Position numbers and translations under genes: made by a program | NCBI GenBank assembly: GCA_030390025.1 | Contig: CM059431.1 | Location: 158,660,001 to 158,724,000 of the forward strand | Length of the DNA stretch: 64,000 bases | Direction of reading: 5' to 3' | Origin: Squalus acanthias | Taxonomy: Eukaryota | The notes under the pieces: generated by a model | The model's database searches: none | The model's input: the letters and a program-made list of their open reading frames with translations, nothing else | Told to the model about the DNA's origin: nothing | Shown here: positions 700 to 64,000 of the stretch, in pieces | How the letters are laid out: each line of letters opens with the position of its first letter | Position numbering within the stretch: the stretch's first letter is position 1

Positions 700-1855
700 A
701 TAGGGATGGCAGTGCAGATGGTGTGCCGCAACTGCAGCATGTGGGAGTTTGTGGAGAGCCTTGTGATCCGGGACAACAACGTTTCCAGTAACTGACTGCA
801 ACTTGAGGAACTTCAGCTCAGAGTTATTGAGCTGGTTTCTGAGGTGTGGACATTGCGGGGTTTCAGAGATGGGGAGAGTTACCTGGAAGCTTTGATCCAG
901 GAGGCAGACACACCCCTTAGGTTAGGTAATGATACAGATCTGTTTAGCGGTCAGGGACAGGAGGGTGTGACTGCAACTCAGACAGCGAAGGGGACCCCAG
1001 CTGAAGTGCTGGAGGCGACTCAGCCTTTGCCCTTGTCCAACAGGTATGAGGTTCTTGCTGCATGTGTGGATGAAGGAAAAGCTTGCAGGATGGATGAGCA
1101 AGCTGACCATGGCACTATGGTGCAGGAGGCCATTCAAGTGGGTGAGTGAAAGGGAATGTAGTTGTGGTAGGGACAGTATACTCAGGGAGATAGATACGGT
1201 TCTCTGCAGCCGCGACCGAGAGTTTCAAAGGTTGTGTTGCCTGCCCGGTGCCAGGGTGAAAGACATCTCCTCGCGGCCGGAGAGGAACTTGGAGTGGGAG
1301 GGGGAGGATCCAGATGTCGTGGTCTTCGTAGGAATCATCAAGATAGGTAGAACTAGGAATGAGGTTCTGCTGAGGGAGTTTGAGGAGCGAGGCTCCAAAT
1401 TAAAAAGCAGAATATCAAAGCCAAATATCTCTAGATTGGTACTTGAGCCACGTGCAAATTCGCATAGGGACAAACAGATTCGAGGTTTAAATGCGTGACA
1501 CAAAGACTGGTGTGGAAGGAAGGGGTTTCACTTTATGGAGCACTGGCACCAGTACTGGGGAAAGAGGCAATTGTTCCGTTGGGACGAGCTCCACTTAAAC
1601 CAGACTGGGAAAAATGTCCTGGCGAACCGAATAGCAAGTGCAGTAGACAGGGCGTTAAAGTAATGAAGGAATGGGGGTGGGAGGTTAGAGGAAAGAGCCA
1701 GTTTTAAAGTAGCGAGAGAAATGTCAAGCTCTAGAGCAGAGTAGAGTTTTGGGTAAAAATCAGCAGAGTGGGTCAAAAAGGGACAGAGAGAGTAACCAAG
1801 ATAATAAGGCATCAGTGACAAATTGTTATCAGGGAAGAATAGAAATATGTCAAAG
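700..1855 (+). mobile_element. CR1 LINE (subfamily X), 5' part: degenerate ORF1 (Cys-rich knuckle, coiled coil, SGNH esterase) and ORF1/ORF2 spacer; continues at 5594
   Basis: ATG at 706. Peptides CRNCSMW, LPLSNRYEVL and RLCCLPGARVKDI match the ORF1 at 41565. The sequence resumes at 5594 with the EN start, colinear with the copy at 27450-27520. Confidence 0.85.
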
Positions 1856-13400: not shown

Positions 13401-14992
13401 GTTCTACCCATACAGATTACACCTCATCAGAGCTAATATCCTTCCTTTCAATTGTGTTGATCCCCTCTTTAACAAGCAGTGCTACCCCACCTCCCTTTCT
13501 TTTTTGCCTATCTTTCCTAAATATTGAATAACCCTGGATTTTGAGTCCCCAGCCTTGGCCACCCTGGAGCCATGTTTCTGTAATCCCAATCAAACCGTAT
13601 TCATTTACCTCTATTTGCGCAGATAATTCCTCTACCTTGTTCCGAATGCTCATTGCATTAATACACAAAGCCTTCAGGCTTGTTTTTTTAACGCTCGCAG
13701 AACAATATGAATTATTATTTACTGTGACCATGTTTGATTTAAACCGTTGAGTTCTCTGCCTTCTACTTTTGTTTTTCTCCTTCCTGTCTTTAGCTTTTAT
13801 CCTTGTTTCCCTTTCCTCTGTCTCCCTGCTCAGATTCCCAACCCCCTGCCACTTTAGTTTAAACCCTCCCCAACAGCACTCGCAAACACTCCACCTTGGA
13901 CATCGGTCCCGGCCCTGCCCAGGCGCAGACCGTCCCGTTTGTACTGGTCCCACCTCCCCAGAACCGGTTCCAATGTCCAAGGAATTTGAATCCCTCCCCC
14001 TTGCACCATTCCTCTAGCCACGTATTCATTTGAAATATTATCCTATTTCTACTCTGACTAGCACGTGGCACTGGTAGCAATCCTGAGATTAATACCTTTG
14101 TGGTCCTCTTTTTTAATTTACCTCCTAACTCCCTATATTCTGCTTTTAGGACCTCATCCCGTTTTTTACCGATATCGTTGATGCCTATGTGCACCACGAC
14201 AACTGGCTGCTCGCACTCCCCCTCCAAAATGTTCTGTAGCCGCTCCGAGACGTCCTTCACCCTTGCACCATGGAGGCAACACACTATCCTGGAGTCTCGA
14301 TTGCGGCCGCAGAAACGCTTATCTATTCCCCTTACAATTGAATCCCCTATCACTAAAGCTCTTCCACACTTTTTCCTCCCAGCCTGTGCAGCAGAGCCAC
14401 CCATGGTGCCAGGAAGTTGGCTGCTGCCGCCTTCCCCTGATAAGTCATCCCTCCCAACAGCATCCAAAGAGGTATATCTGTTTGAGAGGGGGATGGCCAC
14501 AGGGGACACCTGCACTACCTGCCTGCACCTCTTACTCTGCCTGGTGGTCACCCATTCACTTCCTGCCTGCCTGATATTTTTACAACACCTCTCCCAGATA
14601 TGTCTCCTCTCTATCCATCCATATATGCATCCCCACAGCCAGCCAGCCAGCCAGCCAGCTAGCCAGTCAGCGTCAACTGCCCATATCCAAATGTGCTCCC
14701 GCCAGGTTTCACAATCGTGGTTCAGATCAGGAATGCTTCACGTAGAACAATGTTTAAAATCACAAAGGCCTTTCAAAATGGCATTATCGAGCCAATTTGC
14801 TGCTTGTTACGGACCTTAACAGCCTATCCCGCCTTTCAGAGGCGGGACGGAGTCGGGACCAGCAGACACGATTTAATGAAAATTGCGTGGAGGCAGGATG
14901 GAGGCGGACTTGTGCCCGCCCGCCAGTTTTCGAAATTGTAACCCCCCACATGCCTCCAAACCCGCCTCCACGGGTCAATGAAAATCCAGCCC
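10499..14992. mobile_element. Harbinger-type non-autonomous element (about 0.68 kb of its own sequence) split by a CR1
   Basis: TIRs GGGCTGGCTTTT / AAAATCCAGCCC; TSD TAA at 10496-10498 and 14993-14995. Confidence 0.85.
10779..14572 (-). mobile_element. Relatively young CR1 LINE, 5'-truncated within ORF1 (SGNH esterase, APE, RT)
   Basis: ORF track 13859-14551 (GDSIVRG, HIGIND), 13417-13980, 12016-12546, 11411-11983 (PQGSVLGP, FADD); (TTCTATGT)n tail; 10-bp TSD CTCCCAGATA at 10769-10778 and 14591-14600. Confidence 0.95.
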
Positions 14993-21633: not shown

Positions 21634-24600
21634 AGGAGCTGATTGTTGAGTAACTGGCGAATGTAGTTTGTTTAAGGACACTTCGCTGAGCCTGGACGAT
21701 CACATGTGCGGGAAAAGTCGCCAGCTACAGCAACTCGAGCGCTTGAATGGCGGCTGGAAACACTGCAGTGCATCCGCGAGGCTGAGAGTTACGTAGATAG
21801 CACGTTTCTAGAGGTGGTCACCCCGCGGCTTAAGAGTATGCAGGGCGAGAGGGAATGGGTGACCGCCAGACAGAAGAAGAGGACCAGGCAGGTAGTGCAT
21901 GAATCCCCGGAGTGCATCGCGCCCTCAAACCAGTACTAATTTCTGAATACAGGTGAGGGTAATGGTTCCTCTGGGGAGTGCACCCACTGTCAAGTCCACG
22001 GCATCACGGGTGCTCAGAGTCACGCTGCGAGGAAAAATAACGGAAGAACCATAGTGGTAGGGGATCGATAGTTAGGGGAACAGACAGGCGTTTCTCCATA
22101 GACGTGATTCCAGGATGGTATGTTTCCTCCCTGGTGCCAGGGTCAGGGATGTCACTGAGCGGCAGCAGGACACTGAGCGGGCAGGAGGAACAGCTAGAGG
22201 TCATTGTCCATATCGGTACCAACGATATTGGCAGAAAGAGGGATAAGGTCTTGCAGGCAGAGTTTAGGGAGCGAGGAGAGAGATTAAAAAGCAGGACCTC
22301 AATGCTAGTAATCTCCGGATTACTCCCGATGCCACGTGCTAGTGAGTACGGGAATAGGAGGATAGAACAGATGAAGGCGTTGCTGGAGAGATGATGCAGG
22401 AGGGAGGGCTTTAGATTCCTGAGGCATTGAGACCGTTTCTGGGGAAGGTGGGACCTGTACAAGCCAGATGGGTTACACCTCAACAGAGCCGGGACCAATA
22501 TTCTCGCGGGGAGGTTTGCTAGTGCTGTTGTGGAGGCAGTAAACTAGTTGGCAGGGGGATTGGCACCAGCATATAGCAGTAGCAACGAGGAATAGGGTGC
22601 ATAAATGAGTGAGTGGGTTGGATAGTACTAGAGAAGATAGTACCAGAGGCGTTAGAAGTATCGTATTAGGTAGGAGCAGACTAAGGAAGATTACGAAAAT
22701 TTCAAAAATGGGCTTAGAATGCATGTACGTAAACGCACAAAGTGTGCTGAATAAATTTGGTGAGCTACAATTAGCCGTCTGGCAATATGATTTTGTGGCA
22801 ATAACGGAAACGTGGCTTAGAAACGGTGAGGATTGGGCACTTAATATTCAAGGGTACAAAATGTTCAGAAAATATAGGGGAGGAAAAAAGGGAGGTGATG
22901 TGGCAGTGCTGATTAAGGAAGACATTGTAGCGTTGGAAAGGGAGCATGTTCTTAAGGGGACAAGGACATAATCCATTAGGTTAGAATTAAGGAGCATAAA
23001 GGGTATGATCACGCTATTGGGGGTATTCTATAGGCCTCCAAATAATGAGAGGGTGGTAGTGAATCAAAAAATGCAGGGAAATCGCAGAGATTTGCAAGAG
23101 CTCTGGAGTGGTGATACTGGGGGACTTTATTTACCCAAATATCGATTGGGATAGTGGTAGGATAATGGGAAAGGAAGGGGAGGAATTTCTGAAATGTGTT
23201 CAGCAGAGTTTTCTTGCCCAATATGTTCTTGGCCTAACTAGGAATGCAGCATTGCTGGATATGGTGCTGGTGCATGAAGTGAGCCAGGTCGACTAAGTGT
23301 CTGTGGGAGAACACTTGGGTACTAGTGATCATCGTATCAAGTGCTTTATATTAGCAATGGAGAAGAGCAAGGGACAGTGTAGAGTGGAATTTCCAAACTG
23401 TAATAGGGCTAACTTCAATGGGATGCTAAAGGATCTAACCAGGGTAAAATGGAACCAATCATACAGGAAAAACAGTAACGGAACAATGGATGATCTTTAA
23501 GGAGGAGATGTTACAAGCACAGGCTGGGTACATTCCAACAAGAGCGAAGGGAAAGGGAACCAAAGCAAGGGCTCATTGAATAATGAGGGAGATAGAGAAG
23601 ATGATGAAACAAAAAAAGAGGGTGTATGATGCATGTCAGGTGAATTCTTCAAGGGACAACCAGACCAAATACAATAGGTTGAGAGGGGATGTGAAGATGG
23701 GGAAAAAATGGACAAAGAGAGAATATGAGAATAGAATGGCGGTTAACATTAAAGGGGACCCAAAAATCTTCTACCGGCATGTAAACAGTAAGCGGGTAGT
23801 AAGAGGCGGGGTGGTGCCTATTAGAAACAAAGAAGGTGTTATATGCTTAGAGGCGCAGGACAAGGCTACAATATTCAATGAGTGCTTTGTATCGGTGTTT
23901 ACTAATTAAGTGGATGCTGACAATATATCGGTAGAAGTGGAAAAGGTAGAAGCAATGGAAGGGATGAACATTGATAGACAGGATGTACTATAATGTCTGG
24001 GTATGATTAGAGTGGACAAGTCGCCTGGTCCAAATGGTTTGCGTCCGAGGTTGCTAAGGGAATTGCGGGAGGAGATAGGGGAAGGGCTTGCCATAATTTT
24101 CCAATCTTCCCTACATGCGGGGGAGGTGCCTGAGGATTGGAAATTTGCAAATGTGACATCATTCTTCGAGAAAGTCTAAAGGACAATGCTAGTAATTATA
24201 GGCTGGTCAGTTTAACATCAGTGGTGGGTTAAGTTTTAGAAACAATAATCAAGGTAAAACTTAACAGGCATTTCGAGAGGTTTAAGCTAAGTAAGGAGGG
24301 TCAACAAGGGTTTGTAAAAGGAAGATCGTGTTTGACCAGTCTAATTGAACTTTTTCATGAAGTAACAGAGAGGATTGGTGAAGGGAATGCAATGCACGTT
24401 GTCGACATGGATTTTCGGAAGGCGTTTGGCAAAGTACCACATAGAATGTTGGTTAACAAAATTGAGGCTCATGGAATAGGTGGGTCAGTGGCAGCTTGGA
24501 AAAGGAATTGGCTTAAAGACAGAAACAGCGAATTTTGGTAAATGACTGTTTTTCAGACTAAAGAATGGAAGACAGCAGTGTTCCCCAAGGGTCCGTGCTG

Positions 24601-26339: not shown

Positions 26340-27853
26340 ATGTGGTGCAGGTGGTGTGCCGCAACTGCAGCATGTGGAAGCTTGTGGAGAATATTGCAAT
26401 CCCGGATGACGACGTCTACAGTAAGTGTCTGCATCTCGAGGAACTTCAGCTCAGAATTGTTGAGCTTAAGTCCGAGGTGCAGACACTGCGGGAAATCAGG
26501 GAGGGGGAGTTAACTGGACACTTTGATCCAGGAAAAAGTCACATCTATTAGGTTAGTTTGTGTTACAGGTCTGGTTAGTGGTCTGGAACAGCAGGGTGTG
26601 ACTGCGACTCAGGCAGGTTAGGGGACTCCTGGTGCGCTGCTGGAGGAGCCTCGGCCTTTGCCTTTATCCAACACGTACGAGTTTCTTGCTGCCTGTGCGG
26701 ATAAGGGCGAAGTCTGCAGGGTTGATGAGCAAACTGATCACGGCACCGTGGTACAGGAAGCCATTCAAGGGTCCGGGGCGAGTGAAAAGGAATGTTGTAT
26801 TGGTATGGGACTGTATGGTCAGTGGGATAGATACTGTTCTCTGCAGCCGCGATCGGGAGTTCCGAAGGCTGTTTATCTGAGTTAAGGATATCTTCGCGCG
26901 CAAGAAGAAGAAATTGGTGTAGGAGGAGGACGATCCAGTGGCCATGGTCCACGTAAGAACCAATGACATTGGTTGAACTAGGGATGAGGTTCTGCTGAGA
27001 CAGTTTGTAGAGCTAGTTTCCAAATTAATATGCAGAACCTCAAAGGTAAGAATCTCCGAAGTGCTCCTGAGCCACGCGCAAATTGGCATTGGGACAAGTA
27101 GATGAGAGATTTAAATGCCTGGCTCAAAGATTGGTGTGTTAGAAACCGTATTGATTCATGGGGCACTGGCAACAGTAATCTGGAAAGAGGGAGCTGTTCC
27201 GTTGGGACAGGCTTTACTTATACCGGGCTGGAATCAGTGTCCTGGAGAATCGAATAACTACGGCGATAGATGGGGCATTAAACCTGAAGGCAGAGTTGTC
27301 AAGTAAGGGAAAATTTTGAAATCTAACAATAAAAGTTAAGAAAATGCAGCAGTGTAGCGATTTGTGTAAAGATAAGTAGAGTGTGAAACGAAGGCACAGA
27401 CTGATTTTAACAGTAATAGTTCATCAGCAAATAAGGTGAAACCAGGGAATAATGGTAAAAAGTTAAAATTAATGTCACTTTATCTGAATGTACGAAGCAT
27501 TCGTAACAAGATACAATAATTAGTTGCACAAATACAGATAAATGGCTTTCATCTAATATCCATTAGTGTGTCGTAGTTGTATGGTCTCCGAGTTGGGAAC
27601 CAAATACTCCCGTTTACTTGATGTTTCGAAAAAAACAGGGAGAAAGGAAAAGGAGGGTATAAACCTGATAATAAAGGATGAGATAAGGGCAGTAGTGAGA
27701 AATGATCTTGGCTCGGAAGATCAGGAAATATAATCAGTATGGGTGGAGATAAGGGGCAGAAAACACTGGTGGGAATAATTTATAGGCCCCCTAACAGTAG
27801 CTATACCGTTGGGCATAGGATTAATCAACAAATAATCGAAGCCTGTAACAAAG
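26340..27853 (+). mobile_element. CR1-X 5' portion (ORF1 and start of EN), decayed; 5'UTR probably extends to about 26000
   Basis: MVQVVCRNCSMW...CLHLEELQLR and PLSNTYE; EN GIIYRPPNS. Confidence 0.85.
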
Positions 27854-33148: not shown

Positions 33149-36100
33149 GGGTCTTAAAATTCGGGGGTTTAGCGCAACCCGTTTCAGCCAGATTCAGGAA
33201 GAAATAGCGGCCGCTGTATTTCCGCCCCCTGCCGGCGGCTCCAGCGGCGCCCGCCATTTTTGGCTGGGCGGTAACGTTGCCGATGTCTGCGCTCGAGAAA
33301 ATTATGTAGATTATGCATAACGTGACGTCAGATAGTGTGCAACGCTCACTTGACGCCCGATCTGCCATTTTCAACTTCGCCGCTCCACTTATCAGAATCT
33401 CTTATCTGCGACCAGCTGAGCAAGCGTTGACAAGCAGGAATGAAGCTCCAGCAGTGTTATTTAAAGGGATCATCAGCAACAGCTCGCAGCTGACATGTTA
33501 CTGCAGTATGACTGGCTCAGAGTAACTTTCTGCAACTCCAGCAGCTCTATAAATGTATTTGTTATACCTTATATCCCTAAGGTATAGGGAGTGTTTGGGC
33601 AAGTGGAGAACGTTTTCATTCTTATTTACTTCACTTGCTCACCGTCATGGGGATTCTACTTGCAGACCCCCTCGCGCTCGAGTATCTTCGAGAGAAGGAG
33701 CGGAGGCAGGGGAAAATTCAAATTCCTGAGGCATTGGAACCAGTTCTGGGGGAAGTGGGACCTGTACAAAAGGAACGGTCTGCACTTGGGCAGGACTGGA
33801 ACCGATGTCCTCGGGGTAATATTTGCTAAAGCAGTTCGGGAGGATTTAAACTAATATGGCAGGGGAAGGGGAACCTATGTAGCGAAACAGGGGGAAGTAA
33901 TATGCAGTCAGAAACAAATGTTAGAAGGGTGAGAAACAACAGGGGAAGGCCGAGTAAACAAAGGCAAGAAACACAAAGGGCCATACTAAATCATAAGTCT
34001 AAAAGGACAAAGGATGTTAATAAAATAAGCCTAAAGGCTCTGTGTCTTAATGCAAGGAGTATCCGTAATAAGGTGGATGAATTGACTGTGCAAATAGATG
34101 TTAACGGATACGATGTGATTGGGATTACAGAGACGTGGCTCCAGAACAATCAAGGCTGGGAACTGAACATCCAGGAGTATTCAACATTCAGAAAGGATAG
34201 AATAAAAGGAAAAGGGGGTGGGGTAGCATTGCTGGTTAAATAGGAGATTAATGAAATAGCTAGGAAGGAAATCAGCTTGGAGGATGTGGAATCAATATGG
34301 GTTGAGCTGCAGAACACCAAAGGGCAGAAAACGTTAGTGGGAGTTGTGTACAGACATCCAAACAGCAGTGGTGAGGTGGGGGAGGGTATGAAACAGGAAA
34401 TCAGAGGTGCGTGCAAAAAAGGCACGGCAGTTATCATGGGTGACTTTAATATGCATACAGATTGGGCTACTCAAACTGGAAGCAATACGGTGGAGGAGGA
34501 TTTCCTGGAGTGTTTAAGGGATGGTTTCCTAAACCAATATGTTGAGGAACCAACTCGAGGGGAGGCCATCCTGGACTGGGTGTTGTGTAATGAGGAAGGA
34601 CTAATCAGCAATCTTGTGGTACGAGGCCCCCTGGGGAAGAGTGACCATAGTATGGTGGAGTTCTACATTAGGATGGAGAAGGAAACAGTTAAGTCAGAGA
34701 CCATGGTCCAGAACTTAAATAAGGGCATCTTTGATGCTATGAGGCGTGAATTGGCGAGGTTAGATTGGCAAGCGATATTTAAGGGGCTATCAGTGGAAGG
34801 GCAATGGCAGACATTTAGAGATCGCATGGATGAACTACAACATTTGTACATCCCGGTCTGGCGTAAAAATAAAAAAGGGAAGGTGGCTCAACCATGGCTA
34901 ACAAGGGAAATCAGGGATAGTATTAAAACCAAGGAAGTTGCATAAAAATTGGCCAGACGTAGCAGCAAACCCGGGGACTGGGAGAACTTCAAAACTCAGC
35001 AAAGGAGGACGAAGGGTTTGATTAGGGCAGGGAAAATAAAATATGAAAGGAAGCTTGCAGAGAACATTAAAATGGACTGCAAAAGCTTCTATAAATATGT
35101 ATAAAGAAAGAGGTTAGTAAAAACAAACGTAGGTCCCTGCAGTCGGAAACAGGGCAAGTCGTAATGGGGAACAAGGAAATGGCAGATCAATTGAACAAGT
35201 ACTTTGGTTCGGTGTTTACTGTGGAGGACACACACAACCTGCCGGAAATAAAAGGGGTCAGAGGATCTGGTAAGAGGGAGGAGCTGAGGGAAATCCTTAT
35301 TAGTCGGGAAAAGGTATTGGGGAAATTGATGGGACTGAAGGCTGAAAAATCCCCGGGGCCTGATGGTCTGCATCCCAGAGTACTTAAGGAGGTGGCCTTG
35401 GAAATAGTGGATGCATTGACGATCATTTTCCAACATTCCTTAGACTCTGGATCAGTTCCGATGGAGTGGAGGGTGGCCAATGTAACCCCTCTTTTTAAAA
35501 AAGGAGGGAGGGAGAAAGCAGGGAATTATAGACCGGTCAGCCTGACATCGGTCGTGGGTAAAATGATGGAAGCAATTATAAAAGATGTCATAACAGACCA
35601 TTTGGAAAGTGGCGACATGATAGGTCCAAGTCAGCATGGATTTGTGAAAGGGAAATCATGCTTGACAAATCTTCTGGAATTTTTTGAGGCTGTTTCCAAT
35701 AGGGTGGACAGGGGGAACCAGTAGATGTGGTGTATTTGGACTTTCAGAAGGCCTTCGACAAGGTCCCACAAAAGAGATTGGTGAGCAAAGTTAAAGCACA
35801 TGGGATTGGGGGTAATGTGTTGACGTGGATTGAGAACTGGTTGGCACACAGGAAACAAAGAGTAGGAGTAAATGGGTACTTTTCAGAATGGCAGGCAGTG
35901 ACCAGCGGGGTACCGCAGGGTTTGGTGCTGGGACCCCAGCTGTTTACATTATATATTAATGATTTGGACGAAGGGATTAAATGTAATATCTCCAAATTTG
36001 CGGATGACACTAAATTGGGAGGCAGTGTGAACAATGAGGAGGATTCTAGGAGGCTACAGAGTGACTTGGACAGATTGGGTGAATGGGCAAATGTATGGCA

Positions 36101-38126: not shown

Positions 38127-41100
38127 AATTTCTATTACGTTGTTCATATAGTTGATTCATCTGATTTACGAATTTCTTGAGGTTCACAAAATAAAGTATC
38201 ATAAATAATATTCTAATCATTGGAGCCCATCATTGATAATACATATCAGAGAAAGATTTCACGTAAGGTAGGAGCGATTACACATGATCTATAATTGCCA
38301 TTGTTCCGCTTGAGATATCTACCCAAGAACGTTAGTCTTCGTTAGAGAGAGCCCATAAAATACAGACGTAACAGACTAAATTTAAAGTGAACTTGGTGAA
38401 CATAGATTTGAGTTACCCTATTTGGAAATCGAAATGAGCCGTTAGCTTTTTGAAATTTACAAGAATGTACTCAATTTATGTGGAGGAAATTGATACTACC
38501 ACTAGAAGAATGCCAGGGAATGCGTCAGTGCCGCTTGTAACAGATGATGGATCGTTGTTCGACATAAAAAAGGACGATTTTGACTTTGTACGATAATATA
38601 AGACTGGTGATAGAGAATTGGTTACCCATTATACATCTCTCCCAATCAAACCCAGCCCGTTTTCCATTTTGTGACAAAAATGAAAAATCACCTCATGCAG
38701 AGGAACATCACTTTTTCTCCCTTTCTTGCTCCCCTTCTTTTTTCAGGGGACGAATATCAGGTGCTTATGTTTCGCAGTTTTCTGCCCATAAAATGCCAAT
38801 ACATTTTTAAGGTAAGCGTTAAGGCATTTAAAGGCTATTTTTGTAAAATATGTCACTTGGACTTTCGATAACCTTTGCCCCGGTTAATAACATGCATATA
38901 GTTACCCAGTTCCCTTTATTGTCACCAGAGGGTGTGCCAATATGAAGGCATATGGGATACTTGCCTTCATTAGCCGAAGTATAGAATATAAGAGCAGGGA
39001 GGTTATGATGGAGCTGTACAAAAAGTTAGTTAGGCCACAGCTGGAATACTGTGTGCAGTTCTGGTCGCCACACTATAGGAAGGATGTGATTCCATTAGAG
39101 AGGGTGCAGAGGAGATTCAGCAGGATGTTACCTGTGGCTGGAGCGTTTCAGCCATGAAGAGAGAGTGGACAGGCTGGGGTTGTTTTCCTTAGAGCAGTGA
39201 AGGCTGAGGGGGGACCTGATTGAGGTGTACAAAATTATGAGGGGCATAGATAGGGTAGATAGAAAGGAACTTTTCCCCTTAGCAGAGGGTTCAATAAACA
39301 GGGGGCATTGTTTCAACGTAAGGGACACGAGGTTTAGACGGCATTTGAGGAAAAACTTTTTCACCCAGAGGGTGGTTGGAATCTGGAACTCACTGCCTGA
39401 AATGGTGGTAGAGGCAGGAACCCTCAATACATTCAAGACGCATTTAGATGAGCACTTGAAATACCATGATGCCCCATCGGACTCGCGGCAGACACAGAGG
39501 AATTCATAAGGAGAATGAGGCTCCGGCTATTCTTCCACGAATATCAAGATGTCAGCAGCGAACCCAATGAGACAATCAATGATCCGGAAGAGCAGACAGA
39601 GGGACCCGCAGTGCAGCAACCGAAGAATAAAGAGTCAAATTGGACCCATCCGGAGGGTCGCTGCCCTAAGCTTGACATGTATGCTCAAGCTGTTAGGAGA
39701 TGCATCAACGCCAGATTCATCAGCCGCACTCGCAAGACATTCCAGAATGTCACCCGAGCACAACGCAACGCCATCCACGCTCTCAAGACCAACCGTGACA
39801 TCGTCATCAAACCAGCAGACAAAGGAGGAGCAATCATCATACAGAACAGAATGGACTATTGCAAAGAAGCATACCGTAAACTGGACAACCAGGAACACTA
39901 CAGACAGTTACCCGCAGATCCGACCAAAGAACACACCCACCAACTCAATAGACAGATCAAGACCTTCGATCCAGACCTTCAAAGTATCCTACGCGCTCTC
40001 ATCCCGCGTGGGAGAATTCTACTGCCTCCCAAAGATACACAAAGCCAACACACCCGGACGTCCTATAGTATCAGGCAACGGTACCCTGGGTGAGAACCTC
40101 TCTGGATACGTCGAGTGCTTCCTGAAACCCATCGTACAGTGAACCCCCAGCTTCTGTCGCGACAATACAGACTTCCTACAGATCTCAGCAACCACGGACC
40201 AGTTGAACCAGGAACACTCCTCGCCACGATGGACTTCTCGGCACTCAACACCAGTATCCCCCACGATGATGGCATCGCTGCGACAGCCTCAGTACTCAAC
40301 ACCAACAACAGCCTATCTCCAGACGCCATCCTACAACTCATCCGCTTCATCGTTGACCACAAATTCTTCACATTCGACAACCAGATTTTTACACAAACAC
40401 ACGGAACAGCCATGGGGACCAAATTCGCACCCCAATACACCAACATCTTGATGCACAAGTTCGAGCAAGACTTCTTCGCTGCACAGGACCTCCAACCAAT
40501 GCTATACACCAGATACATCGACGACATTTTCTTCCTATGGACCCACGGCGAAGAATCACTGAAAAGACTACACGATAACATCAACAAGTTCCATCCCACC
40601 ATCAAACTCACCATGGACTACTCCTCAGAATCGGTTTCATTCTTGGACACACGAATCTCCATCAAAGACGGACACCTCAGCACTTAACTCTACCGCAAGC
40701 CCACGGACAACCTCACGATGCTCCACTTCTCAAGCTTCCATCCTAACCACGTTAAAGAAACCATCCCCTATGGACAAGCCGGGCAAGTACACAGGATCTG
40801 CTCAGACGAGGAGGAACGCGATGGACACCTACAGACGCTAAAAGACGCCCTCGTAAGAATGGGATATGACGCTCGACTCGTCGATCAACAGTTCCGACGG
40901 GCCACAGCGAAAAATCGCATAGACCTCCTCAGAAGACAAAGACGGGACACAACCAATACGTCGTCCAGTAGTTCCCGGGAGCGGAGAAACTATGCCATGT
41001 TCTTCGCAGCCTTCAACAAGTCATCGATGATGACGAACACCTCGCTAAGGCCATCCCCACGCCTCCACTACTCGCCTTCAAACAGCCACCTAACCTCAAA

Positions 41101-41564
41101 CAGACCATCGTTCGCAGCAAATTACCCAGCATTCAGGAGAACAGCGATCACGACACCACACAACCCTGCCACGGCAACCTCTGCAAGACATGCCAGATCA
41201 TCAAAACAGAGGCGGCGGACCTGGGTGGAGCAACAGCGGCGAGGCGGCAGCGGTAAAAGGCGGCAGCGACCAGGTAGGCCCACAGAGGCGGCGGACCTGG
41301 GTGGAGCAACAGCGGCGAGGCGGCGGCGGTAAAAGGCGGCAGCGACCAGGTACGCTTTCACCAAGCCGAGAGCAGGAGAGAGGTAAAAAATAATCGAAGT
41401 GTGACGTCACCAGAAAGCAGGTAAGTGATTGGTTGGTGAGTATTTCTCTTTTTTTTTATACAAAACTTCAATTTTATTGTTTCTCGGGTATCTGTGGTGT
41501 AGCAGAGACTGCTGGCATAAATTAACTGAAGGGTAAATAATAAATTTTTAATTAATTACATAGA

Positions 41565-42521
41565 ATGGGAGAGCAGGTGATGTGTTACTGCTGCAATATG
41601 TGGGAGCTGGTGGACACCATTGATGTTCACGGTGAACACATTTGCAGTAAGTGTTGGCTGCTCGAGGAACTCCGGCTCCGTGTTGATGAGCTGGAGTCCG
41701 AGCTTCAAACACTGCGACACATCAGGGAGGGGGAGAGTTACCTGGACTCCGTGTTTCAGGAGGTAGTCACACCAATTAGAGTAACAAATTCAGAAGTAGC
41801 CCGTGGTCAGGGACAGGAAGGTGTGACTACGAGTGAGGCAGGTACAGGGATCCAGGAGGTAGTGTTGGAGGAGCCGCAGCCCTTGCTCTTGTCCAACAGG
41901 TTCGAGGCTCTTACTCCCTGTGTGGATAGGAGCGGGGACTGCAGGGAGGATGAGCAACCTGGCCACAGCACCGTGGTAAGGGGGGCCATTCAAGTGGGGG
42001 GAGTAAAAAGAAATGTTGTAGTGGTAGGGGATAGTATCATTAGGGGGATAGATAGGGTTCTTTGCAGCCAAGAGCGAGAGTCCCGAAGGCTGTGTTGCCT
42101 GCCCGGTGCCAGGGTTAAGGACATCTCCTCTGGGCTGGAGAGAAACTTGGAGTGGGAGGGGGAGGATCCAGTTGTCGTGGTCCATGTTGGTACCAATGAC
42201 ATAGATAGGACAAGGAAAGAGGTTCTGCTGAGGGAGTTTGAGCAGCTAGGGGCCAAATTAAAAAGCAGAACCTCGAGGGTAATAATCTCTGGATTACTAC
42301 CTGAGCCACGAGCAAATTTGGCTAGGGTAAATAAAATCAGGGAGTTGAATGCGTAGCTCAAAGACTGGTGTGGGAAAAATGGGTTTTGCTTCTTGGGACA
42401 CTGGCACCAGTACTGGGGCAGGAGAGAGCTGTTCCGTTGGGACGGACTTCACTTGGCCAGTGCTGGGACTAGTGTCCTGGCGAATCGAATAACTGGGGCT
42501 GTGGAGAGGGCTTTAAACTAA
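41565..42521 (+). CDS. CR1 ORF1p (Cys/His knuckle, coiled coil, SGNH esterase), one premature TAG at 42354
   Basis: Motifs CYCC..HICSKC, GDSIIRG, HVGTND and DGLH; natural end ...ERALN* at 42519-42521. Confidence 0.9.
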
Positions 42522-42559
42522 TTAGTGGGGGGGAGGTTTCAAGAGAGCAAAAAATAAAA

Positions 42560-45510
42560 ATGACAACAGAGAGGGTCATAGACATAGGTAGCAGTAGGGG
42601 AATCACAAATCAGAGCGTGGCAGGAAGGGACAGAGTGTGTGGAGTAAAAGGTAAACTGGTAAAAAGTGAAAAAGCAGGAACTAAGTGCCACAAAGCATAT
42701 TTGAAAGTTCTCTATCTGAATGCACGTAGCATTCATAACAAAATAGACGAGTTAATGGCACAAATAACTACATATGGTTATGATATTGTGGCCATTACAG
42801 AAACATGGCTGCAGGGTGACAATGCCTGGGAATTAAACATACCAGGTTATTTAACGATCAGGAAGGACAGGCAGGAAGGAAGGGGAGGTGGGGTGGCTAT
42901 GTTAATAAAGGAAGGAATCACTGTAATACAGAGTAATGATATTGGGTCAAAAAATCATGATAATGAAACAGTTTGGGTGGAGATAAGGAATAATAAGGGG
43001 AAAAAAACATTAGTGGGCGTAGTCTATAGGCCTCCGAACAGTTGCAACTCTATTGGACGGAGTATCAATCAGGAAATAGTTGAGGCATGTAATAAGGGAA
43101 CATCTATAATTATGGGGGATTTTAACTATCATATTAATTGGACAAATCAAATGGGGCAGGGCTGCCTTGAGGATGAGTTCATTGAGTGTATTAGCGATGG
43201 GTTTCTTGAGCAGTATGTAACTGAACCGACCAGGGGGCAAGCAACCTTAGATCTGGTCCTGTGTAACGAGACAGGATTAATTAAAAATGTCCTAGTAAAG
43301 GATCCCCTTGGAATGAGTGACCATAACATGGTTGAATTCCATATTCAATCAGAGGGTGAGAAGGTTGGATCTCAAACAAGCGTGCTAAGCTTGAATAAAG
43401 GAGACTATGAAGGTATGCGAGCGGAATTGAGTAGAGTGGATTGGGAAAATAGATTAAAGGGTAAGACGACACATGATCAGTGGTGTACATTCAAGGAGTT
43501 ATTTTACAACTTCCAAAAAAAATATATTCCACTGAAAAGAAAAGGGTGTAAAAGAAAGGACAGTCATCCGTGGCTAAGTAAAGAAATTAAGGATAGTATT
43601 CGACTAAAAACAAGGGCATATAAGGTAGCGAAATCTAGTGGGAGGACAGAGGATTGGGAAAACTTTAAAAGGCAGCAAAAAATAACAAAAAGATTGATTA
43701 AGAAAGGGAAGATAGATTATGAAAGTAAATTAGCAAAAAATATAAAAACAGATAGTAAGAGTTTTTATAGTTATATAAAAAGAAAAAGGGTGGCTAAAGT
43801 AAATGTTGGTCCCTTAGAGGATGAGACCGGGAAATTAATGGTGGGAAATATGGAGATGGCAAAAACACTGAATGAATATTTTGTATCAGTCTTTACAGTA
43901 GAGGACACTAAGAATATCCCAACACTGGACAAACAGGGGGCTATAGGGGGAGAGGAGCTAAACACGATCAAAATCACTAAGGAAGTGGTACTCGGTAAAA
44001 TAATGGGACTCAAGGCGGATAAATCACCTGGAACTGATGGCTTACATCCTAGAGTCTTGAAGGAAGTGGCGGTAGGGATTGTAGATGTATTGGTAATAAT
44101 TTTTCAAAACTCCCTGGATTCCGCTAAGGTCCCGGCAGACTGGAAAACTGCTAATGTAACACCCTTATTTAAAAAGGGCAGTAGACAGAAGGCTGGTAAC
44201 TATAGACCGGTTAGCCTAACATCTGTGGTAGGTAAAATTTTGGAGTCCATTATTAAGGAAACAGTAACAGGACATTTGGATAATCATAATTTAATAGGAC
44301 AAAGTCAGCATGGTTTTACGAAGGGGAAGTCATGTTTGACAAATTTGCTGGAGTTCTTTGAGGAAGTAACATATAGAGTGGATAAAGGGAACCAGTGGAC
44401 GTAGTGTATTTAGACTTCCAAAAGGCATTTGACAAGGTGCCACACAAAAGATTATTGCTTAAGGTAAAAAATCACGGGATTGGGGGTAATATTCTGGCAT
44501 GGATAGAGGATTGGCTATCTAACAGAAAGCAAAGAGTTGGGATAAATGGTTCATTCTCAGACTGGCAATCAGTAACTAGTGGTGCTCCACAGGGGTCAGT
44601 GCTGGGTCCCCAACTCTTCACAATCTATATTAACGATTTGGAGGAAGGGACCAAGTGTAACATATCAAAATTTGCAGATGATACAAAGATGGGAGGGAAA
44701 GTAGTGAGTGAGGAGGACATAAAAAACCTGCAAGGGGACATAGACAGGCTAAGTAAGTGGGCAGAGATTTGGCAGATGGAATACAACACTGGAAAGTGTG
44801 AGGTGATGCACTTTGGCAGGAAAAATCCTAGAGCAATTTATTATCTTAATGGCAAGAAACTGGAGAGTACTGAAGTGCAAAGGGATCTGGGGGTCCTGGT
44901 GCACGAAACTCAAAAGGTTAGTATGCAGGTGCAGCAAGTGATTAAGAAGGCAAATGGAATGTTGGCTTTCATTGCTAGGGGGATAGAATATAAAAATAGG
45001 GAGGTATTGCTTCAGTTGTACAAGGTATTGGTGAGACCGCACCTGGAATACTGCATACAGTTTTGGTGTCCTTACTTAAGGAAAGACATCCTTGCTCTCG
45101 AGGCAGTGCAAAAAAGGTTCACTCGGTTAATCCCGGGGATGAGGGGGTGGTCATATGAGGAGAGGTTGGGTAGATTGGGACTCTACTCATTGGAGTTCAG
45201 AAGAATGAGAGCCGATCTTATTGAAACATATAAGTTTGTGAAGGGGTTGGATCGGGTGGATGCGGGGAGGATGTTCCCGATGACGGGTGAGACGAGAACT
45301 AGGGAACATAGTCTTAGAATAAGGGGCTGCTCTTTCAAAACTGAGATGAGGAGGAACTACTTCACTCAGAGGGTGGTAGGTCCATGGAATATGCTGCCAC
45401 AAAAAGCTGTAGAAGCTACAACATTAATTAAATTTAAAACAGAAATAGACAGTTTCCTAGAAGTAAAGGGCATTAAGGGTTACGGGGAGCGGGCAGGAAT
45501 TTGGACATGA
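42560..45510 (+). CDS. CR1 ORF2p (APE endonuclease + RT), one 1-nt deletion near 44388; the reading frame is also open upstream to 42512
   Basis: ORFs of 614 aa and 371 aa with YLNARS, ITETWL, GDFN, SDH, PQGSVLGP and FADD. Confidence 0.93.
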
Positions 45511-46420
45511 GTCTAGGTTCGGATCGGTCATGGCCCTGTGGGTAGTGGAGCGGGCCCAGGGACCGTGTAGCCTGATTCTGCTCCTATTTCGTGTGTGCAA
45601 TTCTGTTAGATGCAGGAGATGGTTCTGTGATAGATAGTAGATTGGCGGTTAGGATCAGATCAGCCATGATCTTATTGAATGGCGGAGCAGGCTCGAGGGG
45701 CCGATTGGCCTACTCCTGCTCCTATTTCTTATGTTCTTATGTTCTTATACCATCAACACACGTGAGGACACCACCCACCAGGTACATGGTACATACTCAT
45801 GTGACTCGGCCAACGTTGTCTACCTCAAACATTGCAGGAAAGGATGCCACGGAGCATGGTTCATCGGCGAGACCATGCAGACAATGCAACAATGTATGAA
45901 CGGACACCGCGCAACAATCGCCAGGCAGGAGTGTTCCCTCCCAGTCGGGGAACACTTCAGCAGTCAAGGGCATTCAGCCTCCGATCTTTGGGTATGCGTT
46001 CTCCAAGGCGGCCTTCGAGACACACGACAACGCAAAATCGTCGAGCAGAAACTGATAGCCAAGTTCTGGACCCATGAGGACGGCCTCAATAGGGATATCG
46101 GGATCATGTCACACTACATGTAACCCCACCTGAAGTAGAGTCATCCAGACTCGAGTCGTCGTTGGCTTGTTCTCTCTACACAGATGCGGCCGGACCTGCT
46201 GTGATTTCCAGCATCTGCCACATTTGACCCCTTGTGACCCCACCTCATTGCCTTTGATGTAATGTTTTCCTGACTGACCTGTTTGGACACCATCCACACC
46301 TTTGATTGCCGTGATTATCTCTCTGCCGAGGTGTGATAAAGGGCAGTTAGAAAGATTAACTGTAATCATCTGGCAGTGTTCTCTGACTATATATGCTGTG
46401 CCTATATGCATCTCTTCCCT

Positions 46421-46457: not shown

Positions 46458-46935
46458 TTTCAAATAAAGCTGTTGGACTATAACCTGGTGTTGTGCGACT
46501 TCTCACATTTGAAATACCATAGCATACAAGGCTACGGACCAAGTGCTGGAAAATGGGATTAGAATAGATTGTGCTTGATGGCTGGCGGAGACACGATAGG
46601 CCGAAGGCCCTCTTTCTGTGCTGCATAAATCTATTAATCTATGACTCTATGAAGCCTGTAAGCTGATGCGCTCGGAGGAAGTAAAGCGCCTGAGGGCGAA
46701 TGCCAGGCAGTTCAAGCTGCCCAAATCGATGCACTTTCCACCAGGAGATAGTAATGTGACCTATAAAGGCCCTACAATTATCCCGGTGTCTTGAATGTGC
46801 GATTATGTAAATTAAATCTCTTTCTTTATTTTTTCCTATGTCAGCCGATGCAAAGACCTCTCACGGAATTGCTGCCATGCTTATGTAGACGCCACGGAAC
46901 TCGTTAGTACATTTCAGTAACTTATTTAAAATTAC

Positions 46936-48658
46936 CTCAGAATTTTGCATTTGTGTAAAACCCCTGTCAGTCTCTGGATCCCTTCATCTTGTATTGAGCA
47001 CATTGTCAGATCTAGTTCTTCTAAAATTTCACAAGGCGTCAGGACCGTCGCCAGTACCATGCAATCCACCGGACTAAGTTCTAAACGACAAAATGCAACC
47101 TTCTTTACAGATCCAAGCAATTTCTTCATCAGTGGTGAGTTTCGGGATTCAGACAGTAGGTAGAATGTGGCCAGAAGTTTTGTTTTATTCTCCTGTCCCT
47201 CACCCTTTTCAATCATTCGCTGAACCTCCTCTTGCAACCAATCTATCACTTTGTGGCATGTTGATTCATCGAACGAGCCCAAGTCCTTTGTTAGCTCTCC
47301 AGTTGAATATGAAGAGGAGAGACCAGCCAGGAAACGGAAGAATATCTTAAACCGATTATCACTGTCCCAGGTTGCTTTACTCAGGAGCTGTTCCATTTTC
47401 TGTGGAGTTGATTTCAGGAACAGTGAGAGAGCGGCGAGAAACTCTTGTAGTTTGAGATGAGTAAATGTGTGCACGGCACTCCTGGCTGAGTTGTGTTCGA
47501 AGATAATTTGCATCATAAACCCGGAAGTGAATTTTGAAGGTTGCAGGTTGTGACGTTTGAAATCATCATCATGAAATATCAGGGATCTCTTGCTGACTCC
47601 GTCATAGGCCATCTCCGCGAGTTTGAGTAAAAGCTCACGTCTGTTTTTAATATTACAACCTTCTCTTTTTAACAAGCTTGCCAAGAAATTTGAAAAGATT
47701 TCGGTGATAGTTTCAGGAAGTTGCCTTTCTCTTTTCTCTTGTCCTCTAAAGAGCGGGGCCAACGTGGAACAGATGATCCAGCAGTACTCGGGAATATAAC
47801 ACATGGTGTACAGGATGTCGTTCTCTTCGATGTATTTGAAAACGGCGTCCGCCATCTTGGCATACCCGAAAAATCTCCGACAATAATCTCTTCTTTCTTC
47901 TGCAAGGAAACCGAGTATCTCAGCCCAGAGATTGACATCGGATTTATTCAGCGAACCCAGGGCACTGGGTCGGCTCGTGACCAACACCGAACAACCCTTC
48001 AGTAACTTCCCCTGAACCAGACACCGGACAATATCAGACACTTCACACCGACACTCGGGATCGAAACACTGATGCTCTGGGTCCACGTTTCTCTGCTGAT
48101 CACTAAAATTGATATCCTCATGAAATGCATCTAACCCGTCAAATATAAGCAGTATCTTCGCTGGTTCTTCCCACACGCGCTCAAGGTCCTTCCCAAAATA
48201 AGGATATGAATCTAGTACTAGCTGCTTCAGACTTGTCTTCTCTTTTACGTTTCGTAATTCCCGACATTTGAAAAGAAAGACAAAGTTGAACTGTTGATAT
48301 ATTTTGCCTGCGGCCCAGTCATGGAGAATCTTCTGCACCATGGTAGTTTTACCGATACCAGCCACACCTGTTACTACCGAGGCTCCAGACAGGCTCGTTC
48401 GACCGAAACTGCTTCTGAATAATTGATTAATTCCAACTTTCTCCAGCGAATTCGTTAGGTGTTTCTTTTGCAATTTTTCGAGCTTTCTACCTGTTTCCCA
48501 AAGTTCGTCACTTACAGTTCTACCTTCCAGAGGGATTTTAATGATTATTACTTTTGTGTATCGATCTTCAAGCGAAAAAATACTTGTCCGTTCCCCACTA
48601 TTCACGTTCATCTTGTCGCATTGTTGGCGGAGAGTTTCTTTATGTTTGTTTTGAATCT
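46936..48658 (-). CDS. NLR exon 5: FISNA-like/NACHT/WH/HD2 and first LRRs (1723 nt, phase 1-2); NLRP3/NLRC3-like
   Basis: Walker A GVAGIGKTT, Walker B ILLIFDGLDA, sensor 1 VTSRP, FTHLKLQEF; boundaries gatttgcag| and CTGAG|gtaatt. Confidence 0.96.
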
Positions 48659-49128
48659 CTGCAAATCAATTAAAATTAATAAAGTCGACGGCAAAATCAG
48701 TACACGTTGAATGAGTATGCGCATAATGCCTCAAAAGATAAAACATAATGACCAGGTGACATGAAACGCAATGGTACTGTCTAATATCTATCCATACATC
48801 TCTCTATCGATATTTTTTTTGTTTGTTTCATTCTTTCTTCGTTTCTATCTTTCCTTTTTAATTTCTTTCCTTTCTTTATCTATCTATTTCTGCTGTTGTC
48901 ACTTTATTTATCCTTCCATTTATCTAGCTATAATTTTCTGTTATCTCGGTGTGTATATCTTTATCTTTCTACGTATCTATCAATATTTTCTATCAACTAT
49001 AACTATCTATCTATCTAGAATTTGGGACCTGTTGAGGATATGAAAAGCGTTATATAATTGTACGCTGTTTCTTTCATAGTAACCGAAGAGCGGTTTTATA
49101 GTACATGAAATGTTTAAACACCACGAAC

Positions 49129-61812: not shown

Positions 61813-64000
61813 AGCGCGGCGGCGGAGGCGGCGGACCTGTTAGGGAGCGAAGGAGAGCGGAGTACAAAAGGAAAGCCCGAGGCGTCAGCGAGGCCGAGAG
61901 CAGTGCGGCGGTGGAGCCGGCGGACCTGTGCGGGAGCGGAGGAGAGCGGAGTACAAAAGGTAAGCCCGAGGCGGCAGCGAGGCCTAGAGCAGCGCGGCGG
62001 CGGAGGCGTCGGACCTGTGAGGAAGCGAAGGAGAGCTGAGGACAAAAGGTAAGCCCGAGGCGGCAGCGAGGCCTAGAGCAGCAGCGGGAGCAGCGGCGGA
62101 GGCGGACCTGTTTTGTGCTGTTATAGTGCGGGTCGCAGTGGTTGCTGGGTAAGTGATAATTTTTTACCTACATATAAGTTGGGCAGCTCCTAAATCCGAG
62201 ACACTACACTTGTATTGTCCCCCACCCTTCCACCTCCTCTAACCTAAAGGGGGTTAGTGAATATCAAGTAAGCTCTTTCTTGTTCTAGTTTAATCCGCAA
62301 GTTAGCTGGGGGGGATGGCAGGGGAGTCAGTGAAATGTTCCTCCTGCAGAATGTTTGAGGTGAGGGATGCCGTCGGTGTCCCTGCTGATTACACCTGTGG
62401 GAAGTGCACCCATCTCCAGCTCCTCGAAAACCACGTTAGGGAACTGGAGCTGGAGCTGGATGAACTTCGGATCATTCGGGAGGCAGAGGTGGTCATAGAT
62501 AGAAGCTTCAGGGATGTAGTTACTCCAAAGAATGAAGATAGATGGGTGACGGTGAGAGGGGCTAGGAGGAAGCAGTCAGTGCAGGGATCCTATTTGGTCG
62601 TTACCCTCATTAACAACTATACCGCTTTGGATACTGTTGAGGGGGACGACCTACCAGTGGTAAGCCACGGTGACCAGATCTCCGGCGCTGAGTCCGTCCC
62701 TGTGGCTCAGAAGGGAAGGGGGGAGAGCAGGAGAGCATTATTAATTGGGACTCAATAGTCAGAGGGACAGATAGGAGGTTCTGTGGCAGCAAAAGAGACT
62801 CACGGATGGTATGTTGCCTCCCGGGTGCCAGGGTCCGTGACGTCTCCGACCGTGTTTTCAGAATCCTCAAGGGGGAGGGGGAACAATCACAAGTCGTGGT
62901 ACACATCGGTACCAACGACATAGGTAGGAGAAGGGACGGGGATTTAAAACAGGAATTTATTGAGCTAGGTTGGAAGCTCAGAGCCAGTACAAACCATGCT
63001 GTAATCTCTGGTTTGTTGCCGGTGCCACGTGTTAGCGAGTTGAGGAACCGGGAGAGAGTGCAGATAAATACGCGGCTGCAGGGATGGTGTAGGGTGGAGG
63101 GTTTCAGTTATGTGGATAATTGGTGCACATTCTGGGGAAGGTGGGACCTGTACAAACAGGACGGTTTCCACCTGTCCAGAAGGGCACAAATATCCTGGGA
63201 GGGAAATTTGCTACGGCTCTTCGAGGGGGTTTAAACTAATTTGTCAGGGGGATGGACAAAGGGCTGTAGTCTAGGAGCCAGTGGTGATTGTAGGGAGGTA
63301 CTGAGGAGGGTATCAAGGTCGCAGGAATGTACCGGCAGACAGGAATGTGGCTTGAAGTGTGTCTACTTCAATGCAAGGAGCATCCGGAATAAGGTAGGAG
63401 AACTTGGAGCGTGGATTGGTACTTGGGACTACGATGTGGTGGCTATTACGGAGACATGGTTAGAACAGGGACAGGAATGGTTGTTGGAAGTTCCGGGGTA
63501 TAGATGTTTCAGTAAGTGTAGGGAAGGTGGTAAGAAAGTTGGAGGAGTAGCATTGTTAATCAAGGATAGTTTAACAGCGGCAGAAAGGCAGTTCGAGGGG
63601 TATCTGCCGTCTGAGGTAATATGGGCTGAATTTAGAAATAGGAAAGGAGCGGCATCGTTGTTCGGAGTCTTCTACAGGCCCCCAAATAGTAATAGAGATG
63701 TGGAGGAAGAAATTGCAAAGCAGATTATGAATAGAGTAGTTGTCATGGGTGACTTCAACTTTCCAAATATTGATTGGAACCTTTATAGGTAAAACAGTTC
63801 GGATGGGATAGTTTTTGCACAGTGTGTGCAGGAGGGTTTCCTGACACAATATGTGGATAGGCCGACAAGAGGTGGGGCCACATTGGATTTGGTACTGGGT
63901 AATGAACCGGGCCAAGTGTTTGATTTGTATGTGGGAGAGCACTTTGGAGATAGTGACCACAATTCGCTGACTTTCACTATTGCAATGGAGAGGGATAGGG
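61813..64000 (+). mobile_element. 5' half of a full-length CR1 (tandem-monomer 5'UTR, ORF1 from 62315, EN start); runs off the window
   Basis: Peptides CSSC..CGKC, HIGTND, YFNARSIRNK, ITETWL and GDFNFPNID. Confidence 0.93.

Follow-up and report, generated by a model that had tools for sequence, protein, structure and literature searches.

The window (the whole stretch of DNA analysed, 64,000 nucleotides from Squalus acanthias) contains a CR1-type LINE in which the two open reading frames meet at a candidate ribosomal slippery site. The features of this focal copy are:

41203..45746, plus strand: CR1-type LINE copy, with 5' UTR, esterase ORF1, endonuclease-reverse transcriptase (EN-RT) ORF2, 3' hairpin region and (TTCTTATG)n tail
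41565..42521, plus strand: ORF1, 318 codons, with a Cys-motif N-terminus, a coiled-coil-like stretch and an SGNH/GDSL esterase
42512..42518, plus strand: slippery heptamer T_TTA_AAC, made of the last base of an Ala codon and the Leu and Asn codons of ORF1
42519..42521, plus strand: ORF1 stop, directly after the heptamer
42529..42533, plus strand: conserved G-run, candidate 3' stimulator, at +11..+15 after the heptamer and part of a G7 run (42527-42533)
42512..44404, plus strand: first segment of ORF2 in the -1 frame, with a variable linker, the APE endonuclease and the start of the RT (PF03372, PF14529, PF00078)
42560..42562, plus strand: first in-frame ORF2 ATG of the focal family, codon 16 from the heptamer start; other lineages lack it or have it at another place
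44386..45510, plus strand: second segment of ORF2 (RT), out of frame in the focal copy

The copy, whose ends are approximate, sits within another retroelement and is not functional. A premature TAG (42354-42356) interrupts ORF1 upstream of the heptamer, and ORF2 is frameshifted near 44390, so that this copy is unable to use the slippery signal; in its intact relatives L216 and L217, ORF2 is open over 999 codons. The esterase domain is recognised by PF13472 above cut-off (E 4e-10, in the intact relative L003), and protein homologues are named SGNH esterase. CR1 LINEs characteristically end in short tandem repeats, without poly(A) or LTR. The focal copy has such an end (at about 45725-45746, again without poly(A) or LTR) together with the other canonical features, namely an esterase-type ORF1 and an ORF2 encoding APE endonuclease and RT, and its junction and flanks resemble, in a comparison by eye, published entries labelled CR1. 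Canonical vertebrate CR1 shares this layout of esterase ORF1 and APE-RT ORF2, the esterase-type ORF1 being described in section 15 of PMC13343379.

ORF1 ends in GCT TTA AAC TAA, which places TTTAAAC in the X_XXY_YYZ register, as the initial annotation had stated. It had also described the -1 frame as stop-free into a 614-aa ORF2; the frame (FKLISGG...) is indeed open to 44404, while the figure of 614 counts from the ATG at 42560-42562, the segment being 630 codons long when counted from the heptamer. The motif had further been ascribed to three other CR1 copies, and TTTAAACTA is found exactly four times in the window, at the places named; a scan of the window showed that all four occurrences end an esterase ORF1. 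The other junctions are:

33845..33851, plus strand: heptamer of a second CR1 lineage, GAT TTA AAC TAA, -1 frame open to the EN
13857..13863, minus strand: heptamer of a third CR1 lineage, GGT TTA AAC TAA, -1 frame open to the EN
63230..63236, plus strand: heptamer of a fourth CR1 lineage, in which ORF2 lacks a Met upstream of the EN motif; the copy is frameshifted on both sides
1654..1660, plus strand: decayed junction GTTAAAG-TAA of an older lineage, most relatives of which keep the motif
22538..22544, plus strand: decayed junction AGTAAAC-TAG
27277..27283, plus strand: decayed junction ATTAAAC-CTG

The -1 frame is open into the EN motif in the second and third lineages, and the motif has been lost in the three old copies, both as first described. 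In the copy at 63230 the -1 frame closes after 14 codons; it is open in 13 of 16 relatives. The relatives of the GTTAAAG-TAA and AGTAAAC-TAG copies carry the exact motif in 7/11 and 9/11 fetched copies, respectively. The bare heptamer is mildly enriched in the window (22 occurrences versus 12.6 +/- 3.7 expected); the signal is carried by the position and register of the heptamer, not by its count.

The ending of CR1 ORF1 in T_TTA_AAC plus TAA or TAG extends far beyond the 64-kb window. We compared 22 lineages, 11 from the S. acanthias genome and 11 from metagenome contigs; they are related by descent and were grouped by hand, with ORF1 core identity between groups down to 10-45%. At first clustering, 38 of 147 profile matches were left out because they had no in-frame tail. 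The X base is T in 22/22 lineages, in codons for A, G, D, C, S, H, Y or F; the heptamer Leu is TTA in 22/22, the Asn is AAC in 21/22, that is in every lineage having Asn, and the stop that follows is TAA in 9 and TAG in 13. In the same ORF1 cores, TTA accounts for 44/246 Leu codons, AAC for 51/105 Asn codons and T for 20% of third bases. Four-fold site identity between groups is 0.26-0.36, and on the 22-lineage tree ORF1 third bases show a mean of 5.3 changes, with 1/116 columns unchanged, whereas heptamer positions -7, -6, -4 and -1 show none. Other synonymous sites of ORF1 are thus saturated and those of the heptamer frozen; the invariance at silent positions that had been proposed as a test of frameshifting is upheld. 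This tree-based count is preferred to a naive probability (1e-7 for 4 groups), which ignores shared ancestry. Copies with tail indels were excluded from the codon table and included in the tally of individual copies, where the exact motif is present in 65/78 (from queries ending before the ORF1 tail, plus blind genome stretches). At the protein level, ORF1 products sharing 24-39% identity with one another's reference finish in LN.

It is extremely improbable that this ending is kept for the Leu-Asn C-terminus of ORF1p, or for overlapping protein frames, with no recoding. The LN end is indeed invariant in 23/23 aligned ORF1 proteins, but a protein need would allow codon variation, none of which is seen at the heptamer, and the preceding residue is one of eight amino acids whose codon always ends in T. 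In the focal copy the -1 frame upstream of the heptamer closes 13 codons earlier, leaving no long coding overlap, and entering the FKL frame by translation would itself require a shift.

Blind 8-kb genome stretches yielded 3 junctions in 20, and searches were therefore targeted. Among metagenome profile matches, 18/34 have at least 2 mismatches to the motif; most of the 33 loci outside the lineages have no ORF2 match (distant esterase ORFs, cut-off contigs), and several are decayed junctions of the same type. In viral contigs, 71 pattern matches were obtained and none was confirmed. Of 20 matches to tttaaacta[ag] in the supplement of PMC13343379, 17 fall on the junction between CR1 ORF1 and ORF2; the entries concerned bear the labels AllMis, CroPor, LatCha, CalMil, AmiCal, AquCat, AldAff and four shark/ray codes (host names of homologues are those of the protein and supplement labels). 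Six silent heptamer variants with TAG give 7 matches there, none in CR1 entries. Among the matches listed for the PMC2817409 supplement (2 of 8), the 10-mer occurs only near the ORF2 3' end. The main text of PMC13343379 makes no mention of frameshift, overlap, start codon, translation or slippage, and no earlier report of -1 frameshifting in CR1 was found in the literature outside the original CR1 papers.

Wherever a lineage has an intact junction, its ORF2 is in the -1 frame; the second condition that the initial annotation gave as refuting is not observed. For 15/22 lineages there is a copy whose frame stays open between the heptamer and the endonuclease Asn, a figure that rests on one open copy per lineage and is no clean test; the remaining 7 are decayed or cut off. 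Within three young families, the same interval is open in 21/30, 11/17 and 13/16 copies. The linker varies from 35 to 72 codons across lineages, and before the first Met 55 of 802 codons in the other two frames are stops. Indels adjoining the site have brought about an in-frame fusion in a few genomic copies (L089).

These observations bear on termination-reinitiation, the mechanism recorded for L1 and SART1 (PMC2881922, PMC3708506), in which ribosomes would restart at a near AUG or a non-AUG codon and the conserved letters would form a reinitiation signal. The geometry would allow it in places: the ATG of the focal family is 38 nt past the ORF1 stop, and in three lineages an AUG lies next to it (S5 reads UAAUG; in B1 and B2 the AUG is 4 codons in). 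Moreover, L1 ORF2 initiation is described as AUG-independent (PMC5009743). However, reinitiation predicts neither an exact X_XXY_YYZ heptamer in ORF1 register, nor a -1 frame that stays constant across linkers 35-72 codons long, nor a frame open before the first AUG. A Met precedes the EN motif in 10/15 open lineages, anywhere from codon 4 to codon 63, its position not being conserved, and five lineages (S3, T1, I1, I2 and I3) have none; in S3 the first Met is at codon 166 in 9/13 open copies. No conserved AUG of the SART1 type, overlapping or near the ORF1 stop, was found across the lineages, UAAUG occurring in one only. We consider reinitiation improbable as the explanation of the junction; where a lineage has an AUG close by, it may serve as an additional route.

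Two readings place the signal outside translation. A motif acting in DNA or pre-mRNA (a TATA-like internal promoter, a branch point or a splice acceptor) would generate an ORF2-only RNA. TTTAAA is AT-rich, the CTAAT of some lineages resembles the branch-point consensus, a donor-like CAGGTAAG site is present in the focal 5' UTR, and 2 published consensus entries also have the junction 10-mer in their 5' UTR. Yet CTAAT lacks conservation, since positions +3 to +5 vary, and what follows downstream is rich in purines and has no pyrimidine tract; translation of an ORF2-only RNA would still require a start codon, which is missing in five lineages, and the codon register would go unexplained. This makes such a motif highly unlikely. 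Alternatively, transcriptional slippage at the T3A3 run could add a base, giving some RNAs with a fused frame. Like frameshifting, it would call for the same frame and dispense with a start codon, and the indel-fused genomic copies (L089) fit with it, but the runs are just three bases long, polymerase slippage needs neither the final C nor the register, both of which are conserved, and the G-run is located after the stop; we give transcriptional slippage almost no credence. As a separate observation on joints, in contigs from 4 public runs presumed to be RNA, compared with an intact relative, the 15 of 20 joints listed include no GT..AG joint leading into ORF2, contigs being unable to show absence.

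Silent-site conservation and the consistent -1 frame together support the fusion first suggested for these elements, a Gag-Pol-like esterase-ORF1p::EN-RT protein. Judging from sequence, esterase-type CR1 LINEs very probably use programmed -1 ribosomal frameshifting, with a predicted esterase-EN-RT fusion of about 1,315 aa (318 + 997) in the focal family. Most ribosomes would stop after the heptamer and release ORF1p ending in ...LN. A minority would slip with both tRNAs, from UUA to UUU and from AAC to AAA, and continue as ...ERAL(N/K)-LISGG... into ORF2.

Most -1 frameshift signals carry a 3' structure, which in the structure-stimulated class is a stem-loop or pseudoknot 5-9 nt downstream. 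In 16 lineages, no stable fold beyond shuffles was found in +4..+93 (z -1.85 to +1.26; the method models no pseudoknots), and the G-run has no shared long-range partner in the 5' UTR, ORF1, ORF2 or 3' UTR, its best pairing partners lying in a different place in each lineage and many of them outside the element. A universal G-quadruplex was rejected on inspection by eye, several lineages (I group, T1) having a single G tract. The five G's at +11 to +15 are conserved in 20-21 of 21 lineages per position; in published consensus junctions, inspected by eye and apparently indel-rich, the G-run is at exactly +11..+15 in 6/17. Because no RNA structure follows the heptamer, the pause, more tentatively than the slip itself, would probably arise from the G-run (as a protein-binding site or an mRNA-entry contact), from slow termination at the adjacent stop, or from both. 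The five-G element at +11..+15, a candidate stimulator, is new here.

How LINEs translate ORF2 has been described as unclear (PMC3708506); L1 and SART1 are the basis of reinitiation as the accepted answer. The seven-base target makes the question testable for CR1. If frameshifting is confirmed, CR1 ORF2 is mis-annotated when begun at the first Met (S3 would lose much of its endonuclease), the CR1 enzyme has the esterase ORF1p as its N-terminal part, the proportion of ORF1p to RT is fixed in the retroviral manner, and the G-run becomes a natural, apparently unstructured 3' addition to the short list of -1 stimulators. CR1-group elements are, according to the abstract of PMC13343379, the dominant retrotransposons of most vertebrate species. 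A broader proposal, which we hold at somewhat less than even chances, is that this dominant vertebrate retrotransposon makes all its RT as a Gag-Pol-like esterase-EN-RT fusion, through a structure-free -1 signal (heptamer, immediate stop and a five-G element 10 nt on, read by a host or element protein or by the ribosome) that would have been retained without change between sharks and archosaurs, and in animal lineages farther away as well.

U_UUA_AAC is named as one of the heptamers on which mammalian ribosomes shift most readily (PMC5009743). The initial annotation had equated it with the coronavirus slippery site: the heptamer and its register are the same in CR1 as at the 1a/1b junction of the coronavirus IBV (PMC5009743), without the pseudoknot or stem-loop, none being found after the CR1 site. 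In Rous sarcoma virus gag-pol, as in CR1, the polymerase is in the -1 frame and unshifted ribosomes soon stop. The IBV and RSV signals use a 3' pseudoknot, whereas no fold was found in 16 CR1 lineages; CR1 also differs in that the stop follows the heptamer directly in every lineage, and in being a non-LTR retrotransposon. The PRRSV nsp2 frameshift is protein-stimulated, by nsp1beta and poly(C)-binding protein acting on CCCANCUCC (PMC5009743), a short, structure-free motif situated 11 nt 3' of where the shift occurs, and the CR1 G-run starts at +11. The likeness is in spacing only: the PRRSV motif is C-rich and follows a different heptamer, while that of CR1 is G-rich and is not known to bind a protein.

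Among LINEs, the Dictyostelium elements TRE5-A and TRE3-A require a -1 frameshift for ORF2, according to a review figure legend (PMC5911963); they are APE-type non-LTR elements like CR1, with a different clade and ORF1 type. In L1 and SART1, too, the LINE RNA carries two ORFs, the output of ORF2 being dependent on translation of ORF1 (PMC2881922, PMC3708506). They yield a separate ORF2p, whereas the CR1 junction predicts a fusion. In the zebrafish element ZfL2-1, ORF2 is reportedly reached by suppression of the ORF1 stop. ZfL2-1 belongs to the L2 clade and has an esterase ORF1 of the same type as CR1 (PMC3905857); its in-frame readthrough would likewise produce an esterase-EN-RT fusion, which CR1 is predicted to reach by a -1 shift.

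The window (G000:C7:158660001-158724000, in a 3.7-Gb genome) is rich in CR1-type LINEs: tblastn detected the ends of seven ORF1s and the starts of nine endonucleases. In addition, the closest named homologs of its ORF1 come from sharks and rays. The focal copy is the following.

about 41203-45746: focal CR1 element, with an esterase ORF1, an endonuclease-reverse transcriptase ORF2 and a (TTCTTATG)n tail

This copy is dead, because ORF1 contains a TAG at 42354-42356 and ORF2 goes out of frame near 44390. The initial annotation had proposed that the two ORFs of CR1 are joined by a programmed -1 ribosomal frameshift at the heptamer T_TTA_AAC (42512-42518), directly followed by the ORF1 stop; all of its coordinates agree with the sequence, and TTTAAACTA is indeed found four times in the window, each time at an ORF1 end. 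The ORF2 segment of 614 residues has this length only when counted from an in-frame ATG at 42560, which had been missed. In two relatives (L216 and L217) the frame that begins at the heptamer runs for 999 codons without a stop, and L003, at the same place as L216, has an ORF1 open for 318 codons from its own ATG. A unit of about 78 nt, duplicated in tandem, opens the 5' UTR of the focal copy (41204-41355 for this stretch), which also contains a TGACGTCA site and a donor-like CAGGTAAG site near 41403-41425. The element is nested in another retroelement (39470-41202 and 45747-46123), presumably Penelope-like; this has an RT ORF, and its C-terminal Cys/His nuclease-like part picks up again beyond the CR1 tail. 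Elsewhere, a 577-codon open frame (46932-48665, plus strand) that encodes the Walker A motif GVAGIGKTT and ends in a leucine-rich part is, judging from these motifs, likely an exon of a putative NACHT/NLR-family immune gene; positions 54800-59500 hold a long array of degenerate tandem repeats that is strongly skewed in GC and AT and open in several frames.

Among 22 lineages, grouped by hand and each represented by its majority codon, the base before the final Leu codon is always T, whichever of eight amino acids its codon specifies, Leu is always TTA and Asn is AAC in 21, the remaining lineage (two copies) being tied with CAC; the stop that follows is TAA in 9 and TAG in 13. In the ORF1 core, 18% of Leu codons are TTA, 49% of Asn codons are AAC and 20% of third bases are T, and no conserved residue there keeps a single codon. 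On the lineage tree, the mean number of changes at a third base is 5.3 (1 of 116 columns is unchanged), and conserved Leu codons change three to nine times; no change falls at the four free positions of the heptamer, whose synonymous sites, singled out for checking at the outset, are invariant. The constraint acts on nucleotides, the silent positions being frozen, which argues against a constraint on the protein, an explanation to which we give almost no credence. Transcriptional slippage is just as improbable, and a DNA or splicing signal is very unlikely. Since a one-tRNA shift would require A_AAC alone, the invariant first base suggests that both tRNAs slip.

The sample from the animal's own genome comprised 109 loci fetched by six protein searches, one of them biased because its query alone contained the ORF1 tail. 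When copies reaching the end of the esterase profile were pooled from the five tail-free searches and 20 blind stretches, TTTAAACT[AG] was present in 65 of 78 (by search 17/19, 19/19, 7/11, 9/11, 10/15 and 3/3); copies without the exact motif mostly carry single changes and are old. In L089 (G000:C4:74969084-74972263), a one-base indel beside the heptamer places ORF1 and ORF2 in one open frame of 888 codons; the same search returned several further matches with open frames of 563-1983 codons.

The ORF1 homolog search returned 58 proteins, and the terminal Leu-Asn is invariant in the query and in the 22 homologs picked for a complete esterase end (24-39% identity to the first alignment row). 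Three distant proteins (P0045, P0047, P0050) still terminate in LN, with an extra stretch of about 60 residues, which we take to be SH3-like, lying upstream of the esterase. A metagenome scan yielded 73 loci, 12 with an in-frame tail, adding 11 lineages: six that we presume from likeness to be bird-like, one unlabelled (L101) and four distant. Two further loci (L094, L099), outside the lineage table as their profile match is short, share this junction, with ORF2 lying in the -1 frame there too. In the supplement of PMC13343379, at 400 characters per cell, tttaaacta[ag] has at least 20 matches, at least 17 of them by eye at CR1 junctions, in entries whose codes we read as alligator, crocodile, coelacanth, elephant shark, bowfin, bullfrog, halosaur, rays and sharks; this search by motif has no denominator, and full-length sequences could alter the count. 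Six silent variants, taken as a control in the same cells, gave at least seven matches, none in CR1 entries. Two shark CR1 consensus entries of this supplement (rows 891 and 896) also have the tttaaacta[ag] 10-mer in their 5' UTR, and among the matches listed for the PMC2817409 supplement it lies close to the 3' end of ORF2 in galliform CR1; both are probably unrelated. A distant esterase-ORF1 LINE (L154:1990-2400 and L155) lacks the heptamer, and its endonuclease lies in the same frame past a single TGA (TGA CCA TGC), suggesting readthrough of the stop or a restart at the Met three codons on; it marks a boundary of the -1 signal.

The placement of ORF2 in the -1 frame holds beyond the window: 15 of the 22 lineages include a copy with no stop in this frame between the heptamer and the endonuclease N-A-R-S motif, across 35-72 codons, and the others end at a contig edge (two) or are decayed (five). 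Reinitiation could draw on a Met before this motif in 10 of the 15 open lineages (codons 4 to 63), the junction of lineage S5 being UAAUG, and is a possible second route in some; however, it is unable to serve all lineages, because five have no such Met, and we consider it unlikely to be how ORF2 is made. Programmed -1 frameshifting, with a predicted ORF1p-ORF2p fusion beside free ORF1p, is very probable. Ribosomes would shift at the heptamer with either AAC or the stop in the A site, and the stop, always present directly after the heptamer, may slow them.

Downstream, G occupies positions +11 to +15 after the heptamer in 20, 20, 21, 21 and 20 of 21 lineages; +4 to +7 and all positions beyond +20 are variable. 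In the -1 frame, +11 and +14 fall on third codon positions, +14 is unchanged across the tree, and nearby Gly codons are GGG in 48 of 173. No local RNA fold was found near the junction, nor a distant pairing partner for the G-run common to the lineages. [quoted passage not shown] We hypothesize that this second conserved element has a role in shifting.

Readthrough is reportedly used by ZfL2-1. Among the papers listed in full-text literature searches, and in passages of PMC2881922, PMC3708506 and PMC4255032, no proposal of frameshifting for CR1 was found; original CR1 descriptions, subscription journals and Repbase reports lie outside this scope, and an earlier suggestion is possible. The term 'CR1' is absent from the first 300,000 of the 449,034 characters of PMC5009743, and 'frameshift' from passages of PMC4120745 and PMC3905857. 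For Paramecium LINEs, a +1 shift, reinitiation or readthrough is suggested in passages of PMC5405496, and passages of PMC5911963 describe TRE5-A and TRE3-A as dependent on a -1 shift. The CR1 feature is real, and is a variant of known recoding in an element class that does not appear to have a record of it.
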